DNA from: a bacterium
Lineage (GTDB): Bacteria; UBA10199; 2-02-FULL-44-16; DYJF01
Assembly: GCA_041739675.1 (NCBI GenBank)
Contig: JBGSNL010000049.1
Location: forward strand, 1 to 20,291
Length of the DNA stretch: 20,291 nucleotides
Direction: 5' to 3'
The notes beneath the pieces were generated by a model, which saw only the letters and a program-made list of their open reading frames with translations, was not told the DNA's origin and made no database searches. The translations under genes and the position numbers were made by a program. Within the stretch, counting starts at the first letter, position 1. The number at the start of each line of letters is the position of its first letter. This document shows, piece by piece, positions 2,487-20,291 of the stretch.

Positions 2487-3089
2487 ATGCCGTACACACT
2501 TCCGGATCTGCCTTTTACGAAAGACGCATTGAAGCCGCACATTTCGTCCGAGACGCTTGATTACCATTACGGTAAACATCACGCGGCCTACGTCACAAAT
2601 CTCAACAATCTTCTGGAAGGAACGGGTCTGGATAAATTGCCGCTTGAAGAGCTTATTGTGAGCGGTGTCGAAAAGGTCCCCTCCGACAAACGGACCGGCG
2701 TTTTCAACAATGCGGCGCAGGTCTACAACCACACCTTTTACTGGAACTGCATGAAGCATTCCGGTGGCGGAGCGCCCACGGGCAAGTTGGCCGATGCCAT
2801 CACAAAATCATTCGGGAGTTTTGATAAGTTCAAAGAGCTCTTCACAAAGACGGCCGTCGGCCATTTCGGCAGCGGATGGGCCTGGCTGGTGAAAACGGGC
2901 AGCGGCACTCTGGAAGTCTATTCCACATCCAATGCCGCCACACCCCTTACGGAAAAGAAAACGCCGCTTCTAACCTGCGACGTGTGGGAGCACGCGTATT
3001 ATATAGATTATCGCAACGCGCGCGCGAAGTACGTCGAGGCGTTCTGGAACGTCGTCAATTGGGATTTTGTCTCAAAGAATTTTGGCTGA
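2487..3089 (+). CDS. sodB: Superoxide dismutase [Fe]
   Basis: [20 protein letters not shown] (AAQ is Fe-type), [26 protein letters not shown]. Confidence 0.95.
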
Positions 3090-3126
3090 TGGCTTAAAGA
3101 AGGTCCATAACGACGGGGGAGCTGCC

Positions 3127-4386
3127 ATGGCGAGAAAAACTTCTTCGCTCACTGCTATAATAATTGCCGTTGCATTCGTTGTGGGAATTGCGGCCTGCGG
3201 CGGAGGGGGTTCGACAAATCCCTCGCCCACAGCCAAGGGATACATAGTACTTTCCTGGAACAACTTGGGCATGCATTGCCTGAATCCCACCTTCCAGACC
3301 CTCGCGATACTGCCGCCGTACAATACTCTCTGGGCGCAGGTGATAAGGAAGGGCGAAGCGCCTGAGGTCGTGACGTCGGGCATCACGGTCGAATACAGTT
3401 TTGCCGAGAACACATATTCGGCGGCCTCCACTCCGCAGAAAACCGATTTCTGGACTTATGTGAAGCAGCTCTTCGGTGCCGATCTGGCACCCGACATGGG
3501 GCTAGCGGGGAAAACTCTTTCGGGCCAGATGGATCTCGTCGGCGACCATTTCGAAGCCGTAGGGATACCTCTCACGGAGTTTCGCGATGCGGATGCCACA
3601 GCCGGCGGTGACTATAAGACGTGGACCCGCTATCCTTATCAGCTTGCGACCGTCATTGTGAAAAGCGCCGTGACCGGCGAGGAGCTGACGCGCGCCACGG
3701 TGGTCGCTCCTGTTTCAAGCGAGATTAACTGTTCAAATTGTCACGGCGATACTGGGGATGCTACGACGTCATATCCTATCACGCCATCGGGGACCGAAAA
3801 CGTCGATCTCAACATCTTAAGGATTCATGACTTTCTTAGTGCCACGACGCTGGAGGCCTCGCAGCCGGTTTTGTGTGCTTCATGCCACGCATCGAACGCA
3901 TTGGGCACGGCCGGAGTTCCGGGGGTGAATAGCTTGTCGAACGCCGTGCACGGCCATCACAAGGACCTAGCAGACATCACTCCCGACACGGACGGCTGCT
4001 ATAATTGCCATCCGGGACCGGTGACCAAATGTTTGCGGGATGTGATGACGACGAAGGGCGAAGTTGCCGGTTGCGTCACCTGCCACGGGACGATGGCCAC
4101 GGTTGCGGTCAATGCCAATCCTTGGCTCAACGAGCCGCGCTGCGACAGTGCCACCTGCCATGGTGCAAGATATGCGCAGGACAAGGCGCTGTACCGCGAA
4201 TCGAAGGGGCACCATGGCATATACTGCGCGGCGTGCCACGACAGCCCGCATGCGATAGCGCCCAGCCGCGAAGCCAACGACGCATTGAAGTTTACCGCGT
4301 TTCAGGGGCATAACGGTCCTATAGATACCTGTAGCCTCTGCCACACGTCCGAGTCGGGCGGGATTGTGCATGAGGAAGATGATTAG
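3127..4386 (+). CDS. Multiheme c-type cytochrome lipoprotein (6 CxxCH + 1 CxxxxCH), 419 aa
   Basis: ATG 3127 after GGGGGAG RBS; lipobox IAAC; WNNLGMHC N-domain; CSNCH, CASCH, CYNCH, CVTCH, CDSATCH, CAACH, CSLCH. Confidence 0.9.
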   Translation: MARKTSSLTAIIIAVAFVVGIAACGGGGSTNPSPTAKGYIVLSWNNLGMHCLNPTFQTLAILPPYNTLWAQVIRKGEAPEVVTSGITVEYSFAENTYSAASTPQKTDFWTYVKQLFGADLAPDMGLAGKTLSGQMDLVGDHFEAVGIPLTEFRDADATAGGDYKTWTRYPYQLATVIVKSAVTGEELTRATVVAPVSSEINCSNCHGDTGDATTSYPITPSGTENVDLNILRIHDFLSATTLEASQPVLCASCHASNALGTAGVPGVNSLSNAVHGHHKDLADITPDTDGCYNCHPGPVTKCLRDVMTTKGEVAGCVTCHGTMATVAVNANPWLNEPRCDSATCHGARYAQDKALYRESKGHHGIYCAACHDSPHAIAPSREANDALKFTAFQGHNGPIDTCSLCHTSESGGIVHEEDD

Positions 4387-5347
4387 GAAGACCGTTAGGC
4401 GTCTGTGGGAGACACTAGCGTCGGTGGAGATGGCGGCGGTTCTCTTTGTGCTCATCATTGCGGCGGCTCTTGCCGGTGTGTTTACCTCTTATGATGTGTA
4501 CCATGCTTCATGGTTCGCGGGTCTTCTGGCCGCATTCGGTATCAACCTTTTCGCCTGCACAGCCCAAAGAATTTCGGCCGGCAAAGTCAGGATAGGTTCG
4601 CTTCTCTCCCATCTGGGTATTCTCGTAATCTTGGCCGGTGTGATCGTCAGCGCGATGCTGAGCGAGCGCGGCCAGATCTCGATTTCGGAGGGCGAGACGC
4701 TGAACGCGTACAGTACCGGCAGGCGCGTCAATCGGATGCCCTTCGGCATCCGGCTCGACGACTTCAATCTGGAATGGAAAAATCAGACGCCGCACGAAAT
4801 TGAAATCGTGGTCAGGGATGCACGCGTAAGGCAGTCGCTGGATGTCGATGTCGGAGGGATCTACGATATAGCAAGTAGCGGTTATTCCATCGAAGTTATG
4901 CGTTTTGTCCCCGATCTTTTTGTTGATAGCGGAATGAATGTCGTTTCAAGAAGCGACAATCCGGGAAACCCCGCGCTCCTGGTCCGTATAAGCCGCGGCG
5001 ACAAGGTGGAGGCGCGCTGGCTCTTCGCCCGCTATCCCGACTTTACGATGGAGCGCGACGGCAATATCGGCCTCGCTTATAAATTCGGAAAGAGCCCGGG
5101 GGATTTCAAGAGCACGGTTACGATATTTGACGAAGGGAAAGGGCGCCTGACCGGCACGATAGAGGTGAACCACCCGCTCAAGTACAGGGGCTATTCATTC
5201 TATCAGGCGAATTACGATCCGGCGAGTCTCCAATGGACGGGCCTCGAAGTTGTCCGCGATCCGGGCGTCCACGTTGTGTTTGCCGGAATTTTGCTTCTCA
5301 ATTTGGGCGTCGTGATAATGTTGTACCGCAGGAGTGTCAAATCATGA
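4370..5347 (+). CDS. resB: Cytochrome c biogenesis System II protein, ResB/Ccs1-like
   Basis: Three N-terminal TMs ending in SHLGILVILAG, a periplasmic domain with IEVNHPLKYRGYSFYQ, and RDPG plus a C-terminal TM. Start is 4370 or 4379. Confidence 0.85.
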   Translation: MRKMIRKTVRRLWETLASVEMAAVLFVLIIAAALAGVFTSYDVYHASWFAGLLAAFGINLFACTAQRISAGKVRIGSLLSHLGILVILAGVIVSAMLSERGQISISEGETLNAYSTGRRVNRMPFGIRLDDFNLEWKNQTPHEIEIVVRDARVRQSLDVDVGGIYDIASSGYSIEVMRFVPDLFVDSGMNVVSRSDNPGNPALLVRISRGDKVEARWLFARYPDFTMERDGNIGLAYKFGKSPGDFKSTVTIFDEGKGRLTGTIEVNHPLKYRGYSFYQANYDPASLQWTGLEVVRDPGVHVVFAGILLLNLGVVIMLYRRSVKS

Positions 5348-6129
5348 GCGCAGTCAACATAAGCATCGCACTGTATTTTGCCGCCTGCGTTTTCTATTTT
5401 GCAGGCGGAATATTCAAGCGCCCCAAAATCGTGAGAATTGCTTCGGCGATTCTTGCCGGCGGTATCGTTTCAAATATGGTTGCCGTGGCTATGAGATGGT
5501 ACATGGCGGGCCGCCCGCCGCTCTCGAATATGCACGAGTCGCTTGTTTTTATCGCGTTTTCTATCGCGCTTGTGTCGCTCATCGTGGAGCTCAAGTACGA
5601 AATAAGTGCAATCGGAGCATTTGCCGCACTTATGGCCCTTCTGGCGCTGGGTTATGGCTCTATTCTTGACACGGCGATAACGCCGCTTTTGCCGGCGCTC
5701 AAGAGCAATTGGCTTATCATCCACGTGACAGCGTACTTCATAGCCTACGGGGCGCTGGCGGTTGCGACAATCGCGGCCGCAATCTATCTTGTCATGGCAT
5801 GGACGCACTTTTCGGATAGAGAGTTTTTAAATAGTCTCGACGGTCTTTCCTTTCGCCTGATCCTTTTTGCTTTTCCATTCCTGACGGTGGGACTTACCAC
5901 CGGCGCGGTTTGGGCGAACGTGGCGTGGGGCAGATACTGGGGCTGGGACCCTAAGGAGACGTGGTCCTTGATCACATGGCTCATCTACGCGCTCTATCTT
6001 CACCTGCGCTCGATGCGCGGTTGGAGAGGGGGACAGACGGCCGCCGTTGCTGTCGCCGGTTTTGTATTCGTCGTCTTCACCTTCATGGGCGTTAATCTTC
6101 TAATGGGAGGTCTGCACAGCTACAAATAA
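5344..6129 (+). CDS. ccsA: Cytochrome c biogenesis protein CcsA/ResC (cytochrome c synthase)
   Basis: WWD motif WGRYWGWDPKETW, PALKSNWLIIH, C-terminal GLHSY; ATGA overlap with the resB stop. Confidence 0.93.
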   Translation: MSAVNISIALYFAACVFYFAGGIFKRPKIVRIASAILAGGIVSNMVAVAMRWYMAGRPPLSNMHESLVFIAFSIALVSLIVELKYEISAIGAFAALMALLALGYGSILDTAITPLLPALKSNWLIIHVTAYFIAYGALAVATIAAAIYLVMAWTHFSDREFLNSLDGLSFRLILFAFPFLTVGLTTGAVWANVAWGRYWGWDPKETWSLITWLIYALYLHLRSMRGWRGGQTAAVAVAGFVFVVFTFMGVNLLMGGLHSYK

Positions 6130-6507: not shown

Positions 6508-8462
6508 ATTTTCCCTCCTTTGAAAGCGGGAAGGGTGGCGGTAACGATTGTGCCCTTCCCCTCACCCCTTGAGTTCACTTTAATCCTTCCGCCGTTTCTT
6601 TCAAGTATTTCTTTGCAGATGGGAAGTCCAAGCCCGACGCCGGGAATGGACGATGTTTGTTTATAGAACTTCTCAAAAACGCGTGCTATCGATTTTTTCG
6701 AAATACCGATCCCAGTATCCTTGACCATGACATTTATGTTGGTTCCGGCACGGGCCGCCGAGATTCCAATTCCTCCGCGCTCCGTAAATTTGACCGCATT
6801 GTCTATCAGGTTTGACAGGACGGACCTGAGATCATACTTGTCCATGAACACAAAATCCGCGTTCTTCGGAATGAAGGTTTTTACATCCAGATTTTTGGCG
6901 TCGATCAAATAACGGAAGTCGCGGAGGACCTCGCGGAGAGCTTTTGAGATCGACGCTTTTTGCTTTGAGATTTCCCTTTTCTGTTCGATCGAAGAGAAAC
7001 TCAATATATTGTCGATGTCTTTTCTGAACCTTTGAATATTTCCCTGGGCCATCTTGAATGCTTTCTTTAAGCGCACGCCGTCGTTTTTGTTCATGGCGCT
7101 GCCAAGCATATCAAGCGACATCTGGCAGAGGGCCATCGGAGTCTTGAGTTCGTGCGAGACGTCCCTGATGAGGTTCTCTTTCATCGCGGTTATTTTCTTT
7201 CTTTCCGTGATATCTTCGGCAAAACCGAAGAAATTGACGATCTCACCTTTCGAGTTTCTGTAAGGGATGACAACAAGATGGACAGGAAAAGTCTCACCGT
7301 TTTTGCGCCTAAAGTTGAGTTCCCCGTCAAATATGCCTTTCTTCGCAGCCGTGTGTACGACATTTTCGGCTTCTTCCCGTGATTCATGTAAGTTGGATGG
7401 AGTAAGCTTTCCTACAGCCTCCTTGGCCGAATACCCCAACATTATCTCAGAATATTTATTCCACAATACGAACTTCCCCGATTGGTCTATGATTCCCATG
7501 TGCAGCGGTACATTGTCATATGAAAGCCGGTAACGCTCTTCGCTGCGTCTCAGCGCCTCTTCGGCTTTCTTGCGCTCTGTGATGTCTATGTTGAATTCAG
7601 CCACCAGCCACTCTCCGTCGGGGTTTCGAAAGGGGATGGTGTGCACCTGGATCACACGGTTGTTTTCGCGCGGCAGCACCTCCTCGGTTACAATGGACCT
7701 CTTTGTCTTGAGAGCCCGCGGAATACCGCAAGTGGAACAGGCCTTGTCCTTTCCCATGAAATATTCGTAACATTTGCGGCCTGCCGGTTCACCGTATATC
7801 TTTTTCCATGCCGGATCCACGTACCGGATGTTATAGTCGCTATCAATCACGTCAACGTTGGTGTTGGTGGCGCCAAGGACGTATTCCAGCCTTTCCTTGG
7901 TTTCCCGAAGTTCCGTTTCCATCCTCTTGCGCTCTGTGATGTCGCGGACGATTCCGAATTCTCCGATGATTTTGCCCCCCTTGATCATCGGCGCGCTTGT
8001 GAATTCGCCTGTCACGTAATTGCCCGACTTGGTTCTTATTCTAAGCTCATACGGGCGGGGCGACTTTCCTTTAAGGACATGGCGGAAGGTGTCGAACGCG
8101 AGCGACAGATCGTCGGGATGGACGAGCGATAAAAAGGCCTTGCCTATGAAATCTTCGCGGCGCCAGCCCGTCACCTTTTCGAAGGCGGGGTTCAGGGAAT
8201 TGATTGTCTCGGTCTCAGCCGAAACTGCATAGATGACGTCAGGGGCGTTTTCAAAAAGGATGCGGTAGCGCTCCTCGCTCTCCCTCAGCGCATCTTCGGC
8301 CTTCTTTCGTTCCGTTATGTCCTCACCCGAACTGATGGCGGCGATCGCCTTTCCTTTATCGTCTCTTAGAAGTGCGTTGTGCCATGCGATCTGCCTTTCT
8401 TCACCCGTGCCGGTCAGTATGGGATTTTCGTTGTACTCGCTCACATCAATTTCGCCGGACAT
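6504..8462 (-). CDS. PAS-domain histidine kinase, C-terminal fragment (partial PAS + 3 PAS + HisKA + HATPase)
   Basis: Repeated DITERK PAC ends, H-box SHELKTPM, N-box NLIDNAVKF, DTGIGI, GLGLPI; no clear SD before ATG 8462. Confidence 0.7.
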   Translation of the reverse strand: MSGEIDVSEYNENPILTGTGEERQIAWHNALLRDDKGKAIAAISSGEDITERKKAEDALRESEERYRILFENAPDVIYAVSAETETINSLNPAFEKVTGWRREDFIGKAFLSLVHPDDLSLAFDTFRHVLKGKSPRPYELRIRTKSGNYVTGEFTSAPMIKGGKIIGEFGIVRDITERKRMETELRETKERLEYVLGATNTNVDVIDSDYNIRYVDPAWKKIYGEPAGRKCYEYFMGKDKACSTCGIPRALKTKRSIVTEEVLPRENNRVIQVHTIPFRNPDGEWLVAEFNIDITERKKAEEALRRSEERYRLSYDNVPLHMGIIDQSGKFVLWNKYSEIMLGYSAKEAVGKLTPSNLHESREEAENVVHTAAKKGIFDGELNFRRKNGETFPVHLVVIPYRNSKGEIVNFFGFAEDITERKKITAMKENLIRDVSHELKTPMALCQMSLDMLGSAMNKNDGVRLKKAFKMAQGNIQRFRKDIDNILSFSSIEQKREISKQKASISKALREVLRDFRYLIDAKNLDVKTFIPKNADFVFMDKYDLRSVLSNLIDNAVKFTERGGIGISAARAGTNINVMVKDTGIGISKKSIARVFEKFYKQTSSIPGVGLGLPICKEILERNGGRIKVNSRGEGKGTIVTATLPAFKGGKI

Positions 8463-9150: not shown

Positions 9151-10698
9151 CTATTGCTCTGGATTGGAGGCCAGATATATTTCGGCAAATTCCGATGCGA
9201 TTTCTAGACCGCGCTCCGTTTTTTTGAACGAGTCGCTTGTCATTTTATAATTATCGACGACCTTCTTTGCCGTGGCATCATCGGTCATCCCGTATTTGTA
9301 GGCCTGCATGTAGTTGAAGGCGGCATCCCCGTAATTTTTTGATTCCTCTTCCGCCTTGCCTATTTCAAAATACTCACGCGCCTTGGCGATGTCCGTTTCT
9401 GCGCCTCCCTTCAGGCGCGGCCGGGAGATTTTGACGGGTGCTCCGGAGCTCTCGGGGAACCGCATCAGGATGACGGATGGCTTCTCTGCTTTGATATCCA
9501 CGGTGTGCATGACGGTGCTTGTGCCCCCCCCGGCGACGAGCTCGATCTCATGGTGGCCTGCGGGCAGATAGAAGCGCCCGATCTGAAATTGCGCCGGCAG
9601 CGTCCGCCAGCTTCTCTCGTCCGCCTTCTCGGCGGCGGACATGGAAAGCGCCAGAAGCGCCAGCCCCACACCCGCGATCTTGCTCTCTGTGTCGTCCTCA
9701 TCCATGAGTTCGCCGCTGGCCGCATAGAGCCCCGTCTGCACGGGGAGCTTTATCATCTTTCTTATAAAACTTCTCTTCTGCCTGTCTTTTTCCGCACGAA
9801 GTATATCCTTCATTATGTTGTAGAACGGATATGTGCTCCCAACCTCCTTGCCGTCTACGACCACTTTTGCGGATTTCAGATTTTCGGGGAAAGCCCTGAC
9901 TTCGGGCATCGAGAGCGTGAACAGGCCGTTGGTGACCGTTGTGGCGACGAAGATCGGAGTTCTGCCCGCCTCTGCGATGACGATGAGCTCGCCGTTTTGT
10001 TTTCTGTAATTTTTCGAAGTCGCCCATGCGAGGGAATTTTTTGGCGGGAGGGTGGCCGTGATTCCAAGCTTTGCGCGTATGGTCTCTGCGTCATAGGCGT
10101 AATAGGGTACTTCGGATTTATGTTTCGTGAGCTGGTTGTACGAAATGAGGGCGTCGTTTATCTGCCCCAGCGTTTCCCACACAATCGCCGAAAGATATAT
10201 GGCGAATGCATTATCAAGCTCATTGGGATCAGTATATATTCTTTCCGATGTCGTGATAAGGCGTCTGACTTCGACGAGGGCCTCGTCCCATTCATCCTCC
10301 ATTATATAGTTGAGCATCCTGATGACGGGGATCATTATGCGCTCGTATTTTTCGCCGCCGTATTCTGTCGCCTCCTCGCTCCAGAGCGTGGCCGCAGTCT
10401 CCCTTGAGACGCTCTTAGGGCTGAGCGCATCGGAGAGCTCCTCGGCCTCGCTGAGCAGCTTGTTGCTTTCGCGGTATTTTCCCGCGGCGTGAAAAATCAT
10501 CCCCTTGTCAAGAAGGTACAAGAGGCGGTCGCGGCCGGCCGGCTTCACATCGTTTATGAGGACAGCGGCATCGTCAAAGCGGCCTTCGTGATATGCGTCG
10601 TGTGCGGCCCGCGCCTTGAGGTTATAGTTCGACACGCACGATGCAAGGCACGGTGCCAGAAGGAGGAAAGTCGCAGCACGAAGGATGATTCGCTGCAT
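9151..10698 (-). CDS. TPR-containing lipoprotein, COG3014-like
   Basis: Lipobox LASC; DRLLYLLDKGM, YGGEKYE, ALVEVRR and ADERSWRTLP motifs typical of the family that neighbours lpoB-like genes; extra C-terminal TPR-like segment. Confidence 0.75.
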   Translation of the reverse strand: MQRIILRAATFLLLAPCLASCVSNYNLKARAAHDAYHEGRFDDAAVLINDVKPAGRDRLLYLLDKGMIFHAAGKYRESNKLLSEAEELSDALSPKSVSRETAATLWSEEATEYGGEKYERIMIPVIRMLNYIMEDEWDEALVEVRRLITTSERIYTDPNELDNAFAIYLSAIVWETLGQINDALISYNQLTKHKSEVPYYAYDAETIRAKLGITATLPPKNSLAWATSKNYRKQNGELIVIAEAGRTPIFVATTVTNGLFTLSMPEVRAFPENLKSAKVVVDGKEVGSTYPFYNIMKDILRAEKDRQKRSFIRKMIKLPVQTGLYAASGELMDEDDTESKIAGVGLALLALSMSAAEKADERSWRTLPAQFQIGRFYLPAGHHEIELVAGGGTSTVMHTVDIKAEKPSVILMRFPESSGAPVKISRPRLKGGAETDIAKAREYFEIGKAEEESKNYGDAAFNYMQAYKYGMTDDATAKKVVDNYKMTSDSFKKTERGLEIASEFAEIYLASNPEQ

Positions 10699-10704
10699 GA
10701 TAAG

Positions 10705-11307
10705 TTAGGGCCGAACCGTTTTTCTCTTGAACGCTTTTTTGAGTTCGACCTCATCGGCCCAGAGGATCGCCGACGATTCAAGATCGGTCACTTCCATTGT
10801 TGTCTTGTAATAGACGATCTCCTGTTTTCCCACAGGCTGTTTTATGGACGCGATGTGGCCCGATATTAGCCAGTCGGCGCCGATCTGTTTGCCCTTCATC
10901 TTTGCCGTCTCGGGGCTCACGTAGCCGGAGGCCTGGTATTCGTACTCTTTTGCCATCTCTTTTCTCAGACGCTCATTCAAGAAAACGAACTGTTTTGTCT
11001 TCAGGAGCTTGGTGCGCATCATGTTCGTGAGAGAAAGTATGTCGATGTGCTCGTCCGTGCCGTTCGTGAACAGACTTATGATGACGGCCGGCTTTTTGTG
11101 TGCCGTAGTGACCAGCTCGCTTCCAAGAAGCGATTGCGTGAGTTGATCCGATATCGTCTGCAGATCGGCCTCGACAAACTTGTCGCTCAAAAGCTTCACC
11201 TCTTCGGGATCGATGTACTTGCCCTTCGTGTAAACCTTTTTCTGCGCGCAGGAAAAAAAGGCGAAGGTCAACGTTAAGGCAAAAGCTAATGCAAAGATTC
11301 TTTTCAT
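10705..11307 (-). CDS. lpoB: LpoB-family lipoprotein (penicillin-binding protein activator-like / CsgG-like fold)
   Basis: Lipobox FFSC; NGTDEHID, GKQIGADWLISG, VYYKTTMEVTDLES..ILW pattern. Confidence 0.8.
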   Translation of the reverse strand: MKRIFALAFALTLTFAFFSCAQKKVYTKGKYIDPEEVKLLSDKFVEADLQTISDQLTQSLLGSELVTTAHKKPAVIISLFTNGTDEHIDILSLTNMMRTKLLKTKQFVFLNERLRKEMAKEYEYQASGYVSPETAKMKGKQIGADWLISGHIASIKQPVGKQEIVYYKTTMEVTDLESSAILWADEVELKKAFKRKTVRP

Positions 11308-11316
11308 TTGTTCCTC

Positions 11317-12351
11317 CTAAAATGTTTCCAGTATTTTGTCTGCGATTGTCTTCTGGACGTGTCTTCCGAGTGCCCTGATGGCAGATTTCGAAGCCATCGT
11401 TTCGACTTTTTCGTTTGCGGAAACGGACCACGTGAGGGCGCCGATGCTCTCATCGGTCTTCGGATTTTTTATTTCAAGATCCAGGTCGGCCTGATAGACC
11501 TGAACCTTGAGGTCCGGGCCCATGTCCATCTCCCCTTTGTAATTCAGATCGGTGGTTCCGAGAAGCAGATAACTTTGCGCGCCCGTCTCGGTTTGTCCTT
11601 TTGTGATAAAACCGCCCTCGGATAACCCCTCAACAACGTACGGTCTGACGGAGGCTGCGGGTCCCTCGATCTTCACTTCAAATCTCACCAACCTTTTCAG
11701 TCCGCCCAAAATTGTTTTTATCGCGGCTTGATGGCTCATCTGAGGTTCTATTGCGCCCTCCAGAATTGCGATCAGCTCGTTTTTGTCGTCGATCTGGGAT
11801 GCGAGCCTGAGTGCCGTGTTGTAATGGCGGATCGAGAGAAGGATCTCTTTTTTGTCCTGATAGCTTTTTGCCGTATCGGTTTCCACCGACAGTTCCCCTT
11901 TGAGGATTTCCGCCTGCTTCTGAATCCTTTCGGCAGCCATCGGCCTGTCGAGGACGGCCAAAGCATAAGTCATCTTGTTTTTTTTGTCGGTGTAGTACTC
12001 TTTTATTTCGACGCCCTCCAATATCTCGTTTGTGCTCGCGGTCACGACGTCAGTTTGGGTCGATTGAGTCTCCGGAGTTTTCTTGCCGCTTATCACCGTT
12101 CTCTTTGCGACCGTCGTGGACTGGATCTCAATCCGCATTGACTTTGCGATCTCCGCCCTGGCCCTGTCGGCTGCCCACCCCAACTGCTGCTTGGGCCCGC
12201 CCTTGTCGGCCGCCACGGCCCCGACTCCAATGAAATAGCGGGGCGGGGAATATTTTTTTGACTGTCCGTCTATCCAGTCGGGTGCTTTCTTGGCCCATGC
12301 GCTGGGCAGGACCATCGCCATCAATGCCACGAATATCAGAATTCTTTTCAT
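11317..12351 (-). CDS. LPP20-domain exported protein
   Basis: SPI-type signal (AWA), PDWI..YFIGVG, AADRARAEIAK, ILEGVEIKEYY..TYALAVLD. Confidence 0.7.
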   Translation of the reverse strand: MKRILIFVALMAMVLPSAWAKKAPDWIDGQSKKYSPPRYFIGVGAVAADKGGPKQQLGWAADRARAEIAKSMRIEIQSTTVAKRTVISGKKTPETQSTQTDVVTASTNEILEGVEIKEYYTDKKNKMTYALAVLDRPMAAERIQKQAEILKGELSVETDTAKSYQDKKEILLSIRHYNTALRLASQIDDKNELIAILEGAIEPQMSHQAAIKTILGGLKRLVRFEVKIEGPAASVRPYVVEGLSEGGFITKGQTETGAQSYLLLGTTDLNYKGEMDMGPDLKVQVYQADLDLEIKNPKTDESIGALTWSVSANEKVETMASKSAIRALGRHVQKTIADKILETF

Positions 12352-12932
12352 TGGACACCGCCATCAGTTATCGTTTTTTCGACGATCGGAGTTTCCATCT
12401 CTTTCAATTTTACGATCGCTTCGTCTGTTTTCGCTTTTATTTTAGCGTCGACATTGGGGCTCTCCAGCACGGAGTTTTCGTAATTTTCATATATTCTTTC
12501 GAAGAAATAATTCATGTCGACTTTGATCAGAGACTTGTACTGTTTCTTTTCGTAACGCCTCGCGACTATCACGGCCCCCAAGAGCGTTTCGTTGGAGGAG
12601 TTTTCGACGATGCTCCGGGAAATTGCGTAGTGATGTGTTCTCACCTCTTTCATGTAGTTGGAAACTAGGGACTGCATGAAGTTTGCGACCTCGGATCTTG
12701 CGTTGAGATCCGCGCTCTTTCTCTGATCGAACTTGTTTTTCCATTCAGGGTTGGAATAACCGATGGCCATGAATATCTTCTCTTTCGGATCCCACGAATC
12801 GCCTTCCTTTTTCCACCATTTTCCCTTGGGATCTAGGTTCTGCCCCCAGTGCTCGTCCTTGGCGCATCCCATAATGAGAGAGGCCGCCATGAAGATGAGA
12901 AGTGCCGCTGCGAAACGTCTTTTTGTAATCAT
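12348..12932 (-). CDS. LPP20-like lipoprotein
   Basis: Lipobox IMGC, AIGYS, ADLNARSEVA, TLLGAVIVAR; ATGA-type overlap with the downstream gene. Confidence 0.7.
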   Translation of the reverse strand: MITKRRFAAALLIFMAASLIMGCAKDEHWGQNLDPKGKWWKKEGDSWDPKEKIFMAIGYSNPEWKNKFDQRKSADLNARSEVANFMQSLVSNYMKEVRTHHYAISRSIVENSSNETLLGAVIVARRYEKKQYKSLIKVDMNYFFERIYENYENSVLESPNVDAKIKAKTDEAIVKLKEMETPIVEKTITDGGVQ

Positions 12933-12950
12933 ATAGGACTCCTTAAGTTG

Positions 12951-14435
12951 CTATTTTTGCATCGTGTATTCCAGGCACGCGCCGCAATTCTGCAATATAA
13001 ATTGATCCGGCACGACAGCGCCGACTTCACACTTCACGCACGCCGAACCGTTGATAGATCCTGCGACGCAGAGATCGTTCACAAATGTGAAAGATATTTG
13101 ATCCGTTCCGCTGGTGAAGGTGTAAACGGGTCCCGATCCCGTGAATGTTGAGATGGTGGATAGCGGACAGACTCCTCTTCCCGATACCCTTATGTAATCG
13201 CCTGCCTGGGAAACGCCGCCGAAACATTCGAGAAGCGTGTTCGTATCGGGTTTTTCAAGTGTCGTTACGAGACTTTCGCATTCCGCCATGTCGAAAGCGG
13301 ATGCGTCGACGTCAGAGAAGGTTCGATCCGTCGGCGCCTCGCAATCCCATATGTTTTGAAACGCGACCGCCTGTCTCACGGAGTCGCCCAGATCGGTTGA
13401 AGGCAGGGCTTGGCCTGACACGTCGCCGAAATAGCTCACCGTTGCGGAGTCTATGATCGTCGGGAAAACCTCTTTCGGGTTGAACGCCTGCAGATCCTCG
13501 TAGCTGCCCTGTCCGTTGTTGTACAGTGCCTTCGATGCGCCGTTCGTTGCGGTGTACATGGAAAAAATTGCGCTCTGCGGGAAAGCCGGAACGTCATACA
13601 CGCTCGTAATCGATTGCTCGGCAACACCCAGTGAGGCGTCGAGCGCTGTGTGTGTGAACGCGGCATTGAAAATGTCATCGAATGTTGTGGCGTCAGTGAC
13701 GTCCTCCGTGGATGGATTTGCGCCGCGGTTAGCCGTGAAGTTGGCGGAAGACGCCTTGCTCCAGTCGAACGCGCTTTCAAGATCCGAGGCAGAGTTCATG
13801 ACGATTTCAAAAGACGCACTTTCGAAAGCAACAGGTGTGCCGCCGATGTTGTGGGCAACTGTGCTTCCCGACCACGTGTGGGTCGATATGATCCCGGTGA
13901 CTTCAAAGTGGTTCGTCCTCTTGAACGAAGCGCCGTCGGCACTCTGGCAAGCGTCTATTTTTAGCGTGTTCGCCGTGCCGTCGGAGATGTTGCCTATCCT
14001 GAGCCTCAGACTCTTGATGCCTGTGACGGATGCGAAGGAATCTCTCATTCCGATCTTGTAATAGCCGTAAGAATTCGCCGTGTCCCCCTCCATGAGGGGA
14101 ATGAAGAATGAGGGCGTCAGAGCCTGCGCCTTCTTTATGATGCAATTAGAAAGCTCCGCCATTTTCAGCGAATCGTTTAGAGTGGGCTTATAGAATTTGG
14201 TCGACATGCAGCCCGTGGAAGACGGGTCGCCGACGACGAACGAGTCTTTACTTACCGATCCGGACGGCGGAGATACAATGTCTATGCCGGAAATGTCGAC
14301 AGTGGGCACGGAAGAGGCTTCATGAACGATCACGGTGTCCCCGATGCCCATGCTGGAAGTTCCGCCGCTGCATGAGAAATAGACAGCGATCCCGGCAAGA
14401 ATAAGAAAAATTGCGATTATCTGAAATTTTCTCAT
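12951..14435 (-). CDS. Hypothetical Cys-rich, Ser/Thr-rich lipoprotein (494 aa)
   Basis: AAGGAGG RBS, signal peptide with lipobox-like YFSC, 13 Cys including C-terminal CVKC and CGAC. Confidence 0.75.
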   Translation of the reverse strand: MRKFQIIAIFLILAGIAVYFSCSGGTSSMGIGDTVIVHEASSVPTVDISGIDIVSPPSGSVSKDSFVVGDPSSTGCMSTKFYKPTLNDSLKMAELSNCIIKKAQALTPSFFIPLMEGDTANSYGYYKIGMRDSFASVTGIKSLRLRIGNISDGTANTLKIDACQSADGASFKRTNHFEVTGIISTHTWSGSTVAHNIGGTPVAFESASFEIVMNSASDLESAFDWSKASSANFTANRGANPSTEDVTDATTFDDIFNAAFTHTALDASLGVAEQSITSVYDVPAFPQSAIFSMYTATNGASKALYNNGQGSYEDLQAFNPKEVFPTIIDSATVSYFGDVSGQALPSTDLGDSVRQAVAFQNIWDCEAPTDRTFSDVDASAFDMAECESLVTTLEKPDTNTLLECFGGVSQAGDYIRVSGRGVCPLSTISTFTGSGPVYTFTSGTDQISFTFVNDLCVAGSINGSACVKCEVGAVVPDQFILQNCGACLEYTMQK

Positions 14436-16272: not shown

Positions 16273-16575
16273 ATGCCAAGGGGGATAATCCAACAACCCG
16301 ATCGTCCGAAAGGCCCCACGGCGGGCTATCCTGAAATCGAGCGTCTGATCGAGACGGAAGATTTTTCCGAGGTCAACGTGAAATTCAAGGAAGCCTACGA
16401 CAAGTTAGACGAGATAGCCAAGCACAAGCGCGGCCTGAAGAAGAGCCGTGAGGCGAAAAAGGCGATGAAGTCTTTGGATCTCGTGATGGATCTTTTCCGG
16501 GAGCTTCTCACCATCAAGTACCGTCTTCAGGAAATAGTCGCCGCGCATCAGTCAAAAAATCCCTCCAAAGCCTGA
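16273..16575 (+). CDS. Small helical protein, candidate YscE/CdsE-like needle co-chaperone
   Basis: 100-aa predicted helical hairpin, first gene of an E-F-G-like triad upstream of sctJ. Function inferred from synteny. Confidence 0.55.
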   Translation: MPRGIIQQPDRPKGPTAGYPEIERLIETEDFSEVNVKFKEAYDKLDEIAKHKRGLKKSREAKKAMKSLDLVMDLFRELLTIKYRLQEIVAAHQSKNPSKA

Positions 16576-16590
16576 TGGCATAATTCTTGC
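16576..16590 (+). promoter_or_regulatory. Putative sigma54 -24/-12 promoter
   Basis: TGGCATAATTCTTGC: GG-N10-GC with TGGCA and TTGC flanks. Confidence 0.55.
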
Positions 16591-16627
16591 GATCCGGTGC
16601 GGCTTTTTTCCGCTAATTTCATAATAT

Positions 16628-16640
16628 AATCAATAATTTA
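16628..16640 (+). promoter_or_regulatory. IHF consensus site
   Basis: AATCAATAATTTA = WATCAA-N4-TTR in an AT-rich intergenic tract. Confidence 0.5.
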
Positions 16641-16690
16641 TATGGCTTTGTGCTCAGGAAAATATTATATATAATGATGTTGTGAAGGGC

Positions 16691-16722
16691 GCAACTTTCG
16701 GTATCGGGCCGGCCGATAATAA
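16691..16722 (+). promoter_or_regulatory. Sigma28 (FliA)-type promoter, copy 1
   Basis: GCAACTTT-N13-GCCGATAATAA, with a canonical sigma28 -10 GCCGATAA; same architecture at 18777. Confidence 0.75.
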
Positions 16723-16754
16723 GAGTGAGGGGTGAATCTTTAGGAGACCGATTT

Positions 16755-17279
16755 ATGGAACCAATCAACATAAAAGCCATTCAGGCAAATGCGATTAGAA
16801 GCTCCGGCCCAAAGGCGGTCGGTACGAAGAGCTTTGATGACTTTTTAGGAGCGGTAGACGCGATGAGCGGAGCCGCAACGACGGCGGGCCAGATGTACGG
16901 TCCGGTCAATGCCAGTACCGTTCTGTCATCGGCTTTTTCCGGCGTCAGCCAGTTGAGCGCAATGAGCGCTCCGTCTTATGCTTCGGGGGCGGGAATGGGC
17001 GGAGTGAGCTCGCCCGGTTATATGGGTTATGGCAAATCCTCCAGTGCGTATCTCTCTTCGTCAATTGCTGGCACCGATTCAACATCTGTAATTCCGGGTA
17101 CCGACGGGTACTCACAGGCGGATATGATCAACACTATGAACCAGAACAACCTGCAACTTTTGGAATTGCAGGCGCTCATGCAGAGCAACATGCAGTCGTG
17201 GAACACGAAATCCAATATTTTATCGGCAGATCACCGTGCGCGCATGGCGATGATTGAAAAGTTCACGGCGCGCGGATAA
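16755..17279 (+). CDS. Putative T3SS needle/filament (SctF/EspA-Bsp22-class) subunit, 174 aa
   Basis: AGGAG RBS; Gly/Ser-rich N-part; C-terminal amphipathic helix NNLQLLELQALMQSNMQSWNTKSNILSADHRARMAMIEKF; lies between E-like and G-like genes. Confidence 0.6.
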   Translation: MEPINIKAIQANAIRSSGPKAVGTKSFDDFLGAVDAMSGAATTAGQMYGPVNASTVLSSAFSGVSQLSAMSAPSYASGAGMGGVSSPGYMGYGKSSSAYLSSSIAGTDSTSVIPGTDGYSQADMINTMNQNNLQLLELQALMQSNMQSWNTKSNILSADHRARMAMIEKFTARG

Positions 17280-17306
17280 TCGATTGAGGTCCCTTTAATG
17301 GGTTGT

Positions 17307-17348
17307 AAAAACCCGCGGTTCGCGTATAATGCGACCCGCGGGTTTTTT
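17307..17348 (+). terminator. Intrinsic terminator (17-bp inverted repeat including A/T tails, 1 mismatch)
   Basis: AAAAACCCGCGGTTCGC-GTATAAT-GCGACCCGCGGGTTTTT(T), 27 nt after the stop of 16755..17279. Confidence 0.7.
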
Positions 17349-17364
17349 ATCAAAGGGGGAATTC

Positions 17365-17793
17365 ATGATCGACATCGATAGAAAATATCTCGTCGTTATG
17401 ATGGAGGCCGGCTACGTCTATCTGGGAATGCAAAAATTCAAGGAGGCGTACCAGGTCTTCGAGGGTGTTGCAGCAATGGCGCCGGATAGCGACATACCCC
17501 TCGTGGCGTTGGGAGGTGTCGATTTTTGCCTGGGCAGATTTACGAGCGCGATCAAATGGTACAAGAAGGCCTTGAAACTCGATCCCACAAGCATATTTGC
17601 AAAGGTCTACATCGGCGAATCGCTTTTCTTTTCGGGAAAGAAAGATGACGCGGTCGCAACGCTTGGCGAAGTGAGCCGCGAAGATCCTTCAGGCGGCGCC
17701 GGCGATTTTGCCCGCGCCCTTCTTGATGCGATAAATCAGGGATTCACACCAAAGATGCTGGCCGGTTTCGAGGCCCCAAAGGGAGCAACATGA
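17365..17793 (+). CDS. TPR protein, SctG (YscG/CdsG)-like T3SS needle chaperone
   Basis: GGGGGA RBS; TPRs (MMEAGYVYLGMQKFKEAYQVFEGVAAMAPDS, AIKWYKKALKLDP); translationally coupled to sctJ. Confidence 0.65.
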   Translation: MIDIDRKYLVVMMEAGYVYLGMQKFKEAYQVFEGVAAMAPDSDIPLVALGGVDFCLGRFTSAIKWYKKALKLDPTSIFAKVYIGESLFFSGKKDDAVATLGEVSREDPSGGAGDFARALLDAINQGFTPKMLAGFEAPKGAT

Positions 17794-18728
17794 GAAAACG
17801 TCATTTTCTTTGTGGAATTATCGCAATCGCTATCCTTTTCGCATTTGTCTCTTGCGGCGGTGTGGCGCTTTATCAGAATCTTTCCGAGGAGGACGCCAAC
17901 GAAATTCTTGTCCTCTTGAGCGAGAATGGAATCAAAGCGGTGAAAAAGACTGAGACGCGCCAGAACGAGGTCTCATGGTCCATCCTTGTCCCTGACAAAG
18001 ATATGGCGCGCGCGCGCGGACTTCTGATGCAGCATAATCTGCCTCGTAAGCGCGAACTCGGCCTCACGGGCGTGTACAAGGAAAAAGGTTTGATCCCCAC
18101 GCCCGATGAACAGAAGGCGCGATATATTCTTGCTCTCAAAGGGGAGATCATCAATTCGCTTGAGAGAATTCCGGAAATCGTGGACGCCGACGTCGTCCTC
18201 AACATTCCGTCGAAAGAGGAATTTGCGACTACCGAGGAAAAGATGAAGCAGCGCCCGACGGCGTCGGTCATCGTCAAGTTCAAGACCTCGGAGAGCGGAA
18301 TACCGCAACTGACAGAGGCAAAACTTCAGGAGTTTGTCGCCAACTCGGTTGAGGGGATGAGTCCCCGCGACGTCACCGTCGTTTTGAGTTACATACCGGG
18401 CAACGGCCAGACGATACGTCCGGGGCAGGTTATGACGCTCCCGCCCAAGGGAGCTGAGGGTGCAGCGCCCCAGGCGGTCGCTCCGACGATGGACAGGGAG
18501 CTGGTCGGCCTGCGCCTGGATGCTGCGTCGAAGGATCGGCTGAAAATTTATCTTTTAGTTTTTTTCCTGCTTCTCATTATCTTGTCGGTCGGTCTTATCA
18601 TCTCAATAGTTCAGGGGAGCCGCATGAGAAGGAAGCTTGCGGAGATGCAAAGCGGCGGGCAATATCCCGCGGTGGAAGGAAGGGTCATGGACGAGGGTCC
18701 GCCCCGCCTGGGTGATGGCGACCGATAA
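17790..18728 (+). CDS. sctJ: Type III secretion inner-membrane ring lipoprotein (YscJ/HrcJ/PrgK family)
   Basis: Lipobox FVSC, LYQNLSEEDANEILVLLSENGI, GLIPTPDEQKARY..ALKGEI..SLERI, PTASVIVK, VANSVEGM...VTV, C-terminal TM. Confidence 0.92.
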   Translation: MRKRHFLCGIIAIAILFAFVSCGGVALYQNLSEEDANEILVLLSENGIKAVKKTETRQNEVSWSILVPDKDMARARGLLMQHNLPRKRELGLTGVYKEKGLIPTPDEQKARYILALKGEIINSLERIPEIVDADVVLNIPSKEEFATTEEKMKQRPTASVIVKFKTSESGIPQLTEAKLQEFVANSVEGMSPRDVTVVLSYIPGNGQTIRPGQVMTLPPKGAEGAAPQAVAPTMDRELVGLRLDAASKDRLKIYLLVFFLLLIILSVGLIISIVQGSRMRRKLAEMQSGGQYPAVEGRVMDEGPPRLGDGDR

Positions 18729-18738
18729 GTAGTTGATA
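18726..18738 (-). promoter_or_regulatory. IHF consensus site
   Basis: Reverse complement TATCAACTACTTA = WATCAA-N4-TTR. Confidence 0.45.
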
Positions 18739-18776
18739 TTTAAGGGAAAGAAATTCAATTTTTAAGGTCAAAATAA

Positions 18777-18808
18777 GCAACTTTGCCCCCTCTCAAAACC
18801 GATAATAA
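18777..18808 (+). promoter_or_regulatory. Sigma28 (FliA)-type promoter, copy 2
   Basis: GCAACTTT-N13-ACCGATAATAA, matching copy 1 at 18 of 19 motif positions with the same spacer length. Confidence 0.75.
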
Positions 18809-18849
18809 TAGTAGAGGGAATGGGGTATAATTGAGTTGAGGTTAAGTCC

Positions 18850-19272
18850 ATGCAATTTAGTCCGATACAACCCGATCTCGTAAGATACGAGATGAAGATG
18901 ACTCAGGGGGTGGATCCGACCGTCAGAGAGGCGAAGAAGCCGGGATTTTTCGGGCGCCTGCTTTCCGGTTTGGGACGCGTGTTGGGCGCCGTGGCCATGC
19001 CGCTTTCTTTCATATTTCCTCCGGCGGCGATCGGTGCGGCCGGCATGTACGGCCTGGGCCAAATCGGGGACCAGATGCAGGCCAAAGCTTATCAGAAACA
19101 GATGGACAAGATGCAGCGCGATAACCAGACGCAGGTTTCGTTTCCCGGCTTGCAGATGGACGGAGAAGCGCTTCAGCCGGCGGGCTATGATATTTCGGCC
19201 AGCGACGAGCGCGTGATGAATGTGCTTTTTGCGAGAAATGACGCCATGAACGAGATGGCGCATTCAATATAA
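18850..19272 (+). CDS. Hypothetical T3SS-associated protein, putative secreted substrate (140 aa)
   Basis: GAGG RBS; amphipathic/hydrophobic segment GFFGRLLSGLGRVLGAVAMPLSFIFPPAAIGAAG; C-terminal helix resembles that of 16755..17279. Confidence 0.7.
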   Translation: MQFSPIQPDLVRYEMKMTQGVDPTVREAKKPGFFGRLLSGLGRVLGAVAMPLSFIFPPAAIGAAGMYGLGQIGDQMQAKAYQKQMDKMQRDNQTQVSFPGLQMDGEALQPAGYDISASDERVMNVLFARNDAMNEMAHSI

Positions 19273-19282
19273 GAGGTGGGTT

Positions 19283-19672
19283 ATGGGTGTCAGGGATGTA
19301 AGATCAACAACGCATGTGCCGGCTACAGAGCGCGAAGAGCGCTTTGCCGGGCATACTGTCAACGAAGGACAGCATTTCGAGCAGTCTGCAGCTCGTCCGG
19401 CGGTTTTGTCCAGGACCGGCGCCTCCCGCTCAGTCACATCTTATCCAGAACCCACGAAAGAGCAGTTGGACAAGATCACCGAGGAACTTCATCCTCTTTC
19501 TTATGCATTTGGCGTTGCAAAAGAAGTTGAGAATGCCGAGGGACAGCCTGTTCCAAAGGAATTTGTTTCCTTTGTCGCCGAGTGGGAGACGCTGAAGCAG
19601 ATTCATGCTGCGGGCTACAATACTTTGCAAGAGATGATCAAGGCCTTCAGCGACGAAATTCAAGCGGCCTGA
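19283..19672 (+). CDS. Hypothetical T3SS-associated protein (129 aa)
   Basis: GAGGTGG RBS, 10 nt after the upstream stop; disordered N-terminus and C-terminal helix WETLKQIHAAGYNTLQEMIKAF. Confidence 0.7.
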   Translation: MGVRDVRSTTHVPATEREERFAGHTVNEGQHFEQSAARPAVLSRTGASRSVTSYPEPTKEQLDKITEELHPLSYAFGVAKEVENAEGQPVPKEFVSFVAEWETLKQIHAAGYNTLQEMIKAFSDEIQAA

Positions 19673-19760
19673 TTTCGGGGTGTGAGCCCCCCACTTTTAG
19701 CGGTATTTCCCTTCACCTCCATCAAATCAAGTCAACCTATCACCCAAATAATCGTTTATT

Positions 19761-19773
19761 TATCAACTAGTTA
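19761..19773 (+). promoter_or_regulatory. IHF consensus site upstream of sigma54 promoter
   Basis: TATCAACTAGTTA = WATCAA-N4-TTR, 26 nt upstream of the -24 element. Confidence 0.55.
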
Positions 19774-19799
19774 GATATTGCAGGCGGTCGTCAAAACCG

Positions 19800-19815
19800 T
19801 GGCATGGAACGTGCA
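19800..19815 (+). promoter_or_regulatory. Putative sigma54 -24/-12 promoter of the sigma28 gene
   Basis: TGGCATGGAACGTGCA: GG-N10-GC, 37 nt before ATG 19853. Confidence 0.6.
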
Positions 19816-19852
19816 TTTCATCTTGCCGGAGTCCGTACAAAAAGGGGATGCC

Positions 19853-20291
19853 ATGGGTAAATCGATTCTTCAGAAGTTGAAGCTGTCCCGCAGGGATGTT
19901 GAAACCCGCGCGCGGGAGAAGGCAAAAGATGAAGCGAGACGGGCGACCGAAGAGGCAAGAAAGCAGAGCGCGCCTAAGCTCACGAAGGCGGAAATGGCAA
20001 AGCTCAAACGCCGCGACGAGCTCATCGCTCAGTATATGCCTTACGCCGCATCGATTGCAGGACGCGTATGCCAGACACTCTCTTCGGCAGTCGATTATGA
20101 AGATGTGCTTTGCAACGCAAGACTGGGTCTTCTTGAAGCCGCAAAGAGATATGATGAGACGGAGAACGTCGATTTCCGGACCTTTGCATATTACAGAATC
20201 AAGGGCGCGATTTACGACGGTCTCAGACGCAGCGGTTGGTTGCCCAGAACTCTCTACGCAAAGCTCAAGTTTGAGGAAGCCGCGAACGAAT
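19853..20291 (+). CDS. fliA: FliA/WhiG-family RNA polymerase sigma factor (sigma28), 3'-truncated by window; not in ORF track
   Basis: Own translation: ...RDELIAQYMPYAASIAGRV..VDYEDVLCNARLGLLEAAKRYDETENVDFRTFAYYRIKGAIYDGLRRSGWLPR (region 2 of FliA); AAGGGGA RBS. Confidence 0.88.
   Translation, partial: MGKSILQKLKLSRRDVETRAREKAKDEARRATEEARKQSAPKLTKAEMAKLKRRDELIAQYMPYAASIAGRVCQTLSSAVDYEDVLCNARLGLLEAAKRYDETENVDFRTFAYYRIKGAIYDGLRRSGWLPRTLYAKLKFEEAANE

Follow-up and report, generated by a model that had tools for sequence, protein, structure and literature searches.

A secretin-less type III secretion system, probably of the early-branching myxococcal type, conserved across the bacterial phylum UBA10199

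The window analysed here is a 20,291-nucleotide stretch of DNA that makes up the entire contig C5 of its source genome, G000, a member of the bacterial phylum UBA10199 (1.91 Mb, 94.6% complete). At its end lie seven co-oriented genes (16273..20291) of a system for type III secretion (T3SS); it is an early-branching, secretin-less one, probably of the myxococcal type, in a phylum-wide and apparently undescribed form. Gene set and gene order recur across the phylum, flagellar rod, filament and L-ring genes are lacking in G000, and a conserved promoter stands before the gene for a needle-like protein. We put at about one in two the probability that these genes specify a non-flagellar T3SS core with a FliG/FliM/FliN ring, likely bearing a needle-like filament and likely serving contact delivery into another cell, most likely bacterial prey or a bacterial host.

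Gene order, distribution and phylogeny

The seven reading frames listed in a preliminary description of the window were all recovered at the same coordinates (Table 1). The likely starts of three of them (16755, 174 aa; 17365, 142 aa; 19853) were chosen according to where ribosome sites and the promoter lie.

Homologues were sought in 93 genomes of the phylum, all from one class and most of them 1.5–3.5 Mb in size. SctJ was matched in 89; the match in G082 has only FliF length, leaving 88 genomes with an orthologue. SctV was matched in 91 (in G082 only an FlhA-like protein) and SctU in 90. Forty loci, chosen from the 88 for long contigs, were compared in detail. The genes from sigma to sctT follow one another in a single run in 38 of them, and every gene from the E-like one to sctT was found in 36, so that the arrangement in the window is not due to chance. 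A gene for an FHA-membrane protein of ~700 aa lies immediately upstream of the locus in 27/40, and in many genomes sctV is found ~8–16 kb further upstream of it. In a second phylum (5–11 Mb genomes; G253, G255) the order is E-F-G-(small gene)-sigma-SctI-SctJ-FliG-L-N-O-P. The possibility of a degenerate relic or a contaminant contig was rejected, since the GC content of 0.52 is like that of the other contigs and full-length SctV is 69–87% identical across the phylum. Flagellin scored over the cut-off in 11 of the 93 genomes and not in the other 82. The same 11 carry a second, FliF-length frame; their flagella are encoded in separate loci, and 10 genomes hold a flagellum and the T3SS together.

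Trees were computed for SctR, SctS and SctT together (32 rows) and for SctV (28 of 35 available rows), with flagella as the root and with SctN and SctU left aside. The rows include six canonical references in the first tree and four in the second, no named Myxococcales or Chlamydia, and several references with long branches. In both trees the phylum groups with the injectisomes at 100/100 and falls outside the canonical ones, while the order of the deep branches is not settled. The non-flagellar and deep-branching character proposed in the preliminary description is thereby upheld.

A second, divergent sctV, absent from G000, was seen in G091, G085, G027, G028 and G084 (L115, L118, L119, L120, L122). 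It adjoins two translocator-like proteins, besides one or two of ~190–210 aa whose tails are needle-like, and its product joins the canonical injectisomes in the SctV tree (96/94).

Table 1. Features of the T3SS locus in the window.
Feature	Position	Strand	Remark
100-aa helical protein, SctE (needle co-chaperone) position	16273..16575	+	present in 38/40 loci
Bipartite promoter GCAACT-N17-CGATAA before needle-like gene	16691..16719	+	38/38 upstream regions
Putative SctF-like filament subunit, 174 aa, Gly/Ser-rich N-terminal extension	16755..17279 (longest reading frame from 16725)	+	weak needle matches
Putative TPR chaperone, SctG position	17365..17793 (longest reading frame from 17329)	+	LcrH-type similarity
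sctJ, inner-membrane ring lipoprotein	17790..18728	+	PF01514 2.9e-28; 312 aa
Second promoter copy, before 140-aa, 129-aa and sigma genes	18777..18805	+	39/41 upstream regions
140-aa protein, Gly-rich hydrophobic hairpin, without signal peptide	18850..19272	+	in 40/40 loci
129-aa fast-evolving protein	19283..19672	+	slot conserved, sequence not
N-terminal half of FliA/WhiG-related sigma factor	19853..20291	+	rest on contig C87

Parts of the machine in the source genome

The ring protein scores 134.6 bits with the SctJ model TIGR02544 (below the cut-off of 161.95) and 41.2 bits with the FliF model TIGR00206; a lipobox (Cys22) and a C-terminal membrane helix are visible in its sequence. It is therefore the short lipoprotein SctJ that had been recognised before, and its reading as FliF was rejected.

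The export apparatus, formerly presumed to lie beyond the window, was located in G000. The cluster continues on contigs C87, C12 and C66, while sctV (C31, next to secA) and sctU (C37) stand elsewhere in the genome. On C87 the order is sigma end, SctI (167 aa), FliG-like, SctL/FliH, SctN, YscO-like, FliK/SctP, FliM-like, FliN-like, FliO-like, SctR, SctS and SctT. Two helical proteins are encoded on C12, which overlaps C87 by 9 bases, and on C66, and behind each stands an LcrH-like chaperone (1e-21 and 2e-20); relatives carry the same helical-protein/chaperone arrangement after sctT. The export set is complete, with one copy found of each gene: SctV (791.8) and SctR (233.2) score over their cut-offs and above FlhA and FliP, respectively, SctN is over its cut-off and SctU reaches 356.4. 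PF17001 matches 15 of the 39 proteins in the rod family SctI, at best with 4.7e-5. The FliG-, FliM-, FliN- and FliO-like genes are over cut-off (PF01706 31.4, PF14841 26.6, PF02154 67.6, PF01052 70.5, PF04347 44.4, TIGR03500 55.7), the FliG-like one with both FliG Pfam models; the FliN-like gene scores higher as an SctQ tail (80.4) than as FliN (61.1). The D slot is occupied by a 705-aa FHA-membrane-PEGA-TPR protein, of which TIGR02500 covers the FHA part only (5.9e-4).

Searches of G000 for flagellin, rod proteins and FlgH (L-ring) gave no match, although the controls matched; stator and hook families were not searched. This bears on a flagellar reading of the locus, which the preliminary description had tied to a FliF protein with fliG- or flgB-type neighbours. 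FliG-, FliM-, FliN- and FliO-like neighbours do exist, but they accompany an SctJ ring; because rod, flagellin and L-ring are also absent and the export genes group with injectisomes, the locus is not read as a flagellar one.

The only secretins in G000 are GspD, within a type II secretion system (T2SS) operon, and one of PilQ type beside pilus-assembly-like genes, with no third. A dedicated secretin, SctC, was found neither in G000 (94.6% complete) nor over the SctC cut-off in any of the 93 genomes (0/93); secretins outside G000 were not classified one by one, so that this count rests on the cut-off. The Tad marker RcpC is absent from G000 and present in 28/93 genomes. Both the lack of a dedicated secretin and the standing of the locus as a core machine of the whole phylum had been overlooked in the preliminary description.

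Some further genes were noticed near the T3SS genes. Beside sctV lies a conserved opposite-strand trio (L010:7988-11384, C31) of a double-FHA protein, a PilW-like TPR protein and a second TPR protein, which are candidate envelope partners. Look-alike small genes of ~110–140 aa, four-helix bundles by eye, are scattered in the vicinity (L010:4077-4842, 7085-7839; L195:2-400). Among 19 loci inspected (L150-L167), ten have sctU diverging from a Ser/Thr-kinase-like gene, in most cases together with an FHA-like one (named by eye), so that phospho-control of the machine is possible.

The needle-like protein and its neighbours

The 174-aa protein is quite probably homologous to SctF, to judge from its sequence. 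Within the family, the C-terminal 40 residues can be aligned to the tails of SctF proteins, and a profile of the last 65 aa returned 12 PDB matches, nine of which are PrgI/MxiH variants (E 0.017–1.1); the best is 7y6c_F, a 43-aa chain which we take to be a needle peptide and for which the listing names the chaperone instead. A homologue from the second phylum matches PF09392 at 5.3e-5, under the cut-off. Atlas look-alikes are hypothetical proteins of Myxococcota (0.95) and the HrpA pilin (0.83), and one Atlas cluster carries PF09392 on 11% of its members.

The gene is flanked by products that may be its chaperones, given their positions and a weak TPR similarity. The 100-aa protein occupies the same slot as yscE and the E gene of D. 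vulgaris; it had no sequence or PDB match and reached E ~0.08 in profile comparison with the references. The TPR protein matches LcrH (5e-7), SctY (4.9e-4) and CdsG (1.8e-3), every score lying under the cut-off, and its family profile matches the G-slot TPR protein of D. vulgaris at 1e-9 (among 17 references). The E-F-G triad of the preliminary description thus holds by position and has weak similarity behind F and G, but E lacks support from sequence.

Downstream of sctJ, the 140-aa protein is a candidate secreted pore or tip protein. Profile searches found no family and no PDB match for it; one of five members scanned gave a weak match to a phage internal virion protein (E 0.003), and an Atlas match (0.82) is a lead only. 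The 129-aa protein has no sequence homologue in the 40 loci (0/40), where unrelated-looking reading frames of ~95–170 aa occupy the slot in most cases. Profile searches gave no family match for it, FlgM included, and an anti-sigma (FlgM-like) function is no more than an idea.

Three to five needle-like paralogues stand in tandem, reminiscent of flagellin arrays, in L193 (G251:C6:56365-61544, by sctU) and in G224:C76. Arrays of proteins of 500–620 aa with a needle-like tail at the end were seen in L186 and L173-L175 (G192:C13, C130).

The sigma factor and the conserved promoter

The last reading frame of the window is cut by the contig end and finds an in-frame continuation on C87. The two contigs overlap by 4 bases, which is not significant alone; the junction between the halves falls at residue 178 of the uncut sigma factor of G006, a genome of the same genus. 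The best family is FliA/WhiG (7.5e-24), in agreement with the earlier assignment as a sigma28 factor. Two intact relatives reach 137–141 bits, short of the TIGR02479 cut-off of 189.6, and the protein is therefore FliA-related and not a typical FliA.

A bipartite motif, GMAACT-N17-CGATAA, precedes the needle-like gene in 38/38 upstream regions (shuffle mean 0.15, maximum 2) and the 140-aa gene in 39/41 (shuffle mean 0.08, maximum 1), counts that are not independent because the pattern was drawn from those regions. A matrix trained without the window found 14 sites of at least 21 bits in G000 compared with 1, 0 and 2 in shuffles. Across the 93 genomes, 90 of which were positive, exact sites number 837 as against 53 for the reversed pattern, and the motif is present in 18 of 20 loci fetched by protein query alone. 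It was found before none of the E-slot (0/39) and G-slot genes (0/41).

Sigma28 promoters have the –10 consensus GCCGATAA and the –35 element TAAA. The –10 part of the motif fits this consensus, as in the flagellar FliA regulon. The local sigma factor presumably reads the motif, which marks a candidate late regulon of the T3SS. With a conserved sigma28-like promoter at hand, the suggestion that flagellum-style regulation had been kept gains support.

Among the products of genes behind the motif in G000 are an SLT transglycosylase that lacks a signal peptide, a TPR protein of 709 aa, an FHA protein and two orphan paralogues of ~1000 aa. They also include a trio, with lengths of 128, 185 and 161 aa, in which hydrophobic helices and coils are seen; several other sites are not followed by any clear gene. 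The SLT match is at 1.4e-29, with a flagellar assembly transglycosylase as the best model for this target. Of the 93 genomes, 20 gave a match to the 185-aa gene, 19 times in the order of the window. In the family of the 128-aa protein 5/11 members match virion-protein PHROGs (E 4e-5 to 0.01), 4/11 spanins and 3/11 nothing, and there is one Pfam match, to T7_gp14 (0.0035). This likeness to phage ejection proteins found no PDB support; it is a lead and may only reflect the make-up of hydrophobic helix plus coil.

Runs of large orphan proteins lie near motif sites or sctU (L204:1956-7703, C54; L203:1-2865, C60; L049:2-10316, C37) and are candidate substrates. Several share an Ala/Arg/Val-rich tail (by eye), and one 1009-aa protein has an HD domain.

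Comparison with known systems

In the closest known relatives, the two myxococcal non-flagellar systems (M. xanthus T3SS* long locus MXAN_2434-2464; short locus MXAN_5643-5654), the published outlines likewise give SctJ, SctI, export apparatus, ATPase and several LcrH-like chaperones, a position outside the canonical injectisomes and no secretin (PMC3459982, PMC10433427). As far as the account in PMC3459982 goes, these systems form the first branch and lack secretin, SctF and FliG, and an SctF without a secretin is proposed for the last common injectisome ancestor. Compared by description, the present system differs in that needle-like and FliG-like genes are conserved and in that it belongs to another phylum, the myxococcal one being described as confined to Cystobacterineae; moreover, sctU and sctV are unlinked and Tad is mostly absent. 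The difference in SctF may be one of detection, because the needle-like protein has look-alikes in Myxococcota. The T3SS* is required for prey lysis in the reports sampled (PMC12075869, PMC10433427); it acts together with the Kil pilus, a pairing described there as limited to Cystobacterineae (PMC12075869, PMC10433427, PMC12428579, PMC10196010).

The canonical injectisomes, sister group in the trees, share the order D-E-F-G-J-K-L-N-O-P-Q-R-S-T (Yersinia Ysc, D. vulgaris pDV), as presumably does Chlamydia for cdsDEFG. In contrast to them, the system described here has no SctC, a FliG-like protein where those have SctK, FliM- and FliN-like genes that are separate and include a FliM middle domain, a retained FliO, a needle-like subunit of twice the usual length, and probably sigma28-type control; canonical injectisomes are under AraC or HrpL control. 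The order G-H-I-J-K-M-N-O-P-Q-R is common to the locus and the E. coli flagellar fliF-fliR operon, from which it departs by SctJ instead of FliF, by the lack of rod, flagellin and FlgH in G000 and, with regard to the FliA regulon, by a –35 element GCAACT instead of TAAA.

A literature search outside subscription journals returned no paper on this system in the phylum, on its sigma28 regulon or on SctF in the T3SS*; the phylum is named just in an abundance list in the part of 10.64898/2026.10.21.760627 consulted. The sigma or FliG-like genes may have been depicted before, in the figures and supplements of Thiery 2022 and in Figure 5 of Abby and Rocha. We also take a fliA-like gene (MXAN_2437) to be present in the M. 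xanthus T3SS* cluster, for which no paper or supplement gave confirmation (the supplements of PMC11980068 and PMC10196010 are without MXAN_243x rows); if so, the sigma factor in the locus is not new.

How injectisomes arose from flagella is an old question, and the sole known intermediate, the myxococcal one, is said to have lost needle and FliG. The present system appears to retain both, without a secretin and across a phylum, and resembles the predicted ancestor of the injectisomes of pathogens. The promoter motif offers a way to list candidate substrates in 90 genomes, and the system opens, for the first time, a functional approach to a phylum for which metagenomes are the sole source.

Possible function and alternative explanations

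In the machine we propose, SctRSTUV, SctJ and the FHA-domain membrane protein would form the base, with SctN, SctL and SctO on a FliG-M-N ring. SctI and the needle-like subunit, the latter kept by the E- and G-slot chaperones, would leave first, and the FliK-like ruler and SctU would then switch substrates. The local sigma factor, acting at the promoter, would provide the late class: filament subunit, 140-aa protein, the three small hydrophobic coiled-coil proteins, the signal-less lytic transglycosylase and the large orphans. Lacking a dedicated secretin, the filament might pass the outer membrane by way of a GspD or PilQ ring that it borrows, or by way of a pore made by the small hydrophobic substrates themselves. 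Outer-membrane crossing and the target cell are the weakest steps. That small genomes keep the machine almost universally fits a dependence on other cells, and an attack on prey may be its purpose.

Several observations weigh against this interpretation. No outer-membrane route was found, and no known translocon or tip family was matched, the gatekeeper family not having been searched. SctN, SctS and SctT score equally or higher with flagellar models. None of the needle matches is significant alone, and the nine PDB matches are variants of two proteins; PF09392 is matched by just 1/38 members (E 0.03), the family had no match among the NCBIfam needle models, and the SctI profile matches the SctF of D. 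vulgaris as well as the needle profile does. The motif is rare before sctI (4/39), sctU (2/18) and the gene of a 378-aa chaperone partner (2/12), no site of matching form appeared in the second phylum, and the genome contains other sigma factors. For the 378-aa protein itself neither a fold nor a profile matched: beyond coiled coils, profile and plasmid searches brought nothing, and its AlphaFold model is poor (pTM 0.29). RcpC (marker of Tad, the T3SS* partner in Myxococcus) is missing from G000, and GltE is not over its cut-off. Finally, a role towards prey or host is proposed here for bacteria known from genomes alone.

As a first alternative, the machine would export only into the periplasm, and a short rod or needle stub there would pass its substrates on to T2SS or type IV pilus components, a scheme put forward for the needle-less T3SS* of Myxococcus. 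The secretin inventory (only GspD and PilQ in G000, 0/93 genomes over the SctC cut-off) agrees with this, as does the fact that Salmonella secretin mutants still send SctF to the periplasm (from the portion of PMC3459982 seen), and the flagellar-assembly-transglycosylase model of the SLT target fits work on the cell's own wall. We nevertheless consider it unlikely, since a strong-consensus promoter before the subunit, the ruler, the LcrH-like chaperones with partners and the paralogue arrays of the second phylum suggest an abundant, extended filament. The bacteria could instead live as symbionts or parasites on protists, with effectors injected into a eukaryotic host in the manner of canonical injectisomes. 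All T3SSs shown to inject target eukaryotes, according to the same part of PMC3459982, the genomes are small, the regulon contains large orphan proteins, and some families have a second SctV with translocator-like genes grouping with canonical injectisomes (96/94). This module is absent from G000, though, and a peptidoglycan enzyme is co-regulated; the 19 regulon-area proteins include no eukaryote-type effector family beyond TPR and FHA, and no ATP/ADP translocase was matched in a weak search whose control matched nowhere either. A protist host thus seems less probable still. Less credible again, and in our view quite improbable, is a surface filament that serves adhesion or sensing without injecting, a substitute for the flagellum that does not rotate. 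It would account for the retained flagellar-type C-ring and FliO, for a subunit transcribed like flagellin from a sigma28-like promoter, and for the 82/93 genomes without flagellin over the cut-off; it sits poorly with the lack of rod and L-ring genes in G000 (hook families not searched), with the 10 genomes that carry both flagellum and T3SS, and with the co-regulated hydrophobic translocator-like proteins. Delivery by contact into bacterial prey or host is preferred here.

A bolder extension of that preferred reading is tentative and somewhat unlikely as a whole. The system would be a living form of the injectisome-ancestor stage predicted by Abby and Rocha (needle, no secretin, flagellar C-ring, FliO, sigma28 late regulon) and the core weapon in an uncultured phylum whose bacteria are all predators or ectoparasites; it would cross membranes by means of small proteins resembling those of phage ejection, and the elongated SctF would be the overlooked needle of the Myxococcus T3SS*.

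Other genes in the window

A lipoprotein cluster (LPP20, LpoB/CsgG-like, TPR) with a 494-aa orphan lipoprotein-like gene occupies 9151-14435 (–) and did not turn up next to the T3SS cluster of relatives. At 3067-6129 (+), after SOD and a YchF-like gene, lies a multiheme cytochrome c gene with ResB/cytochrome c assembly genes.

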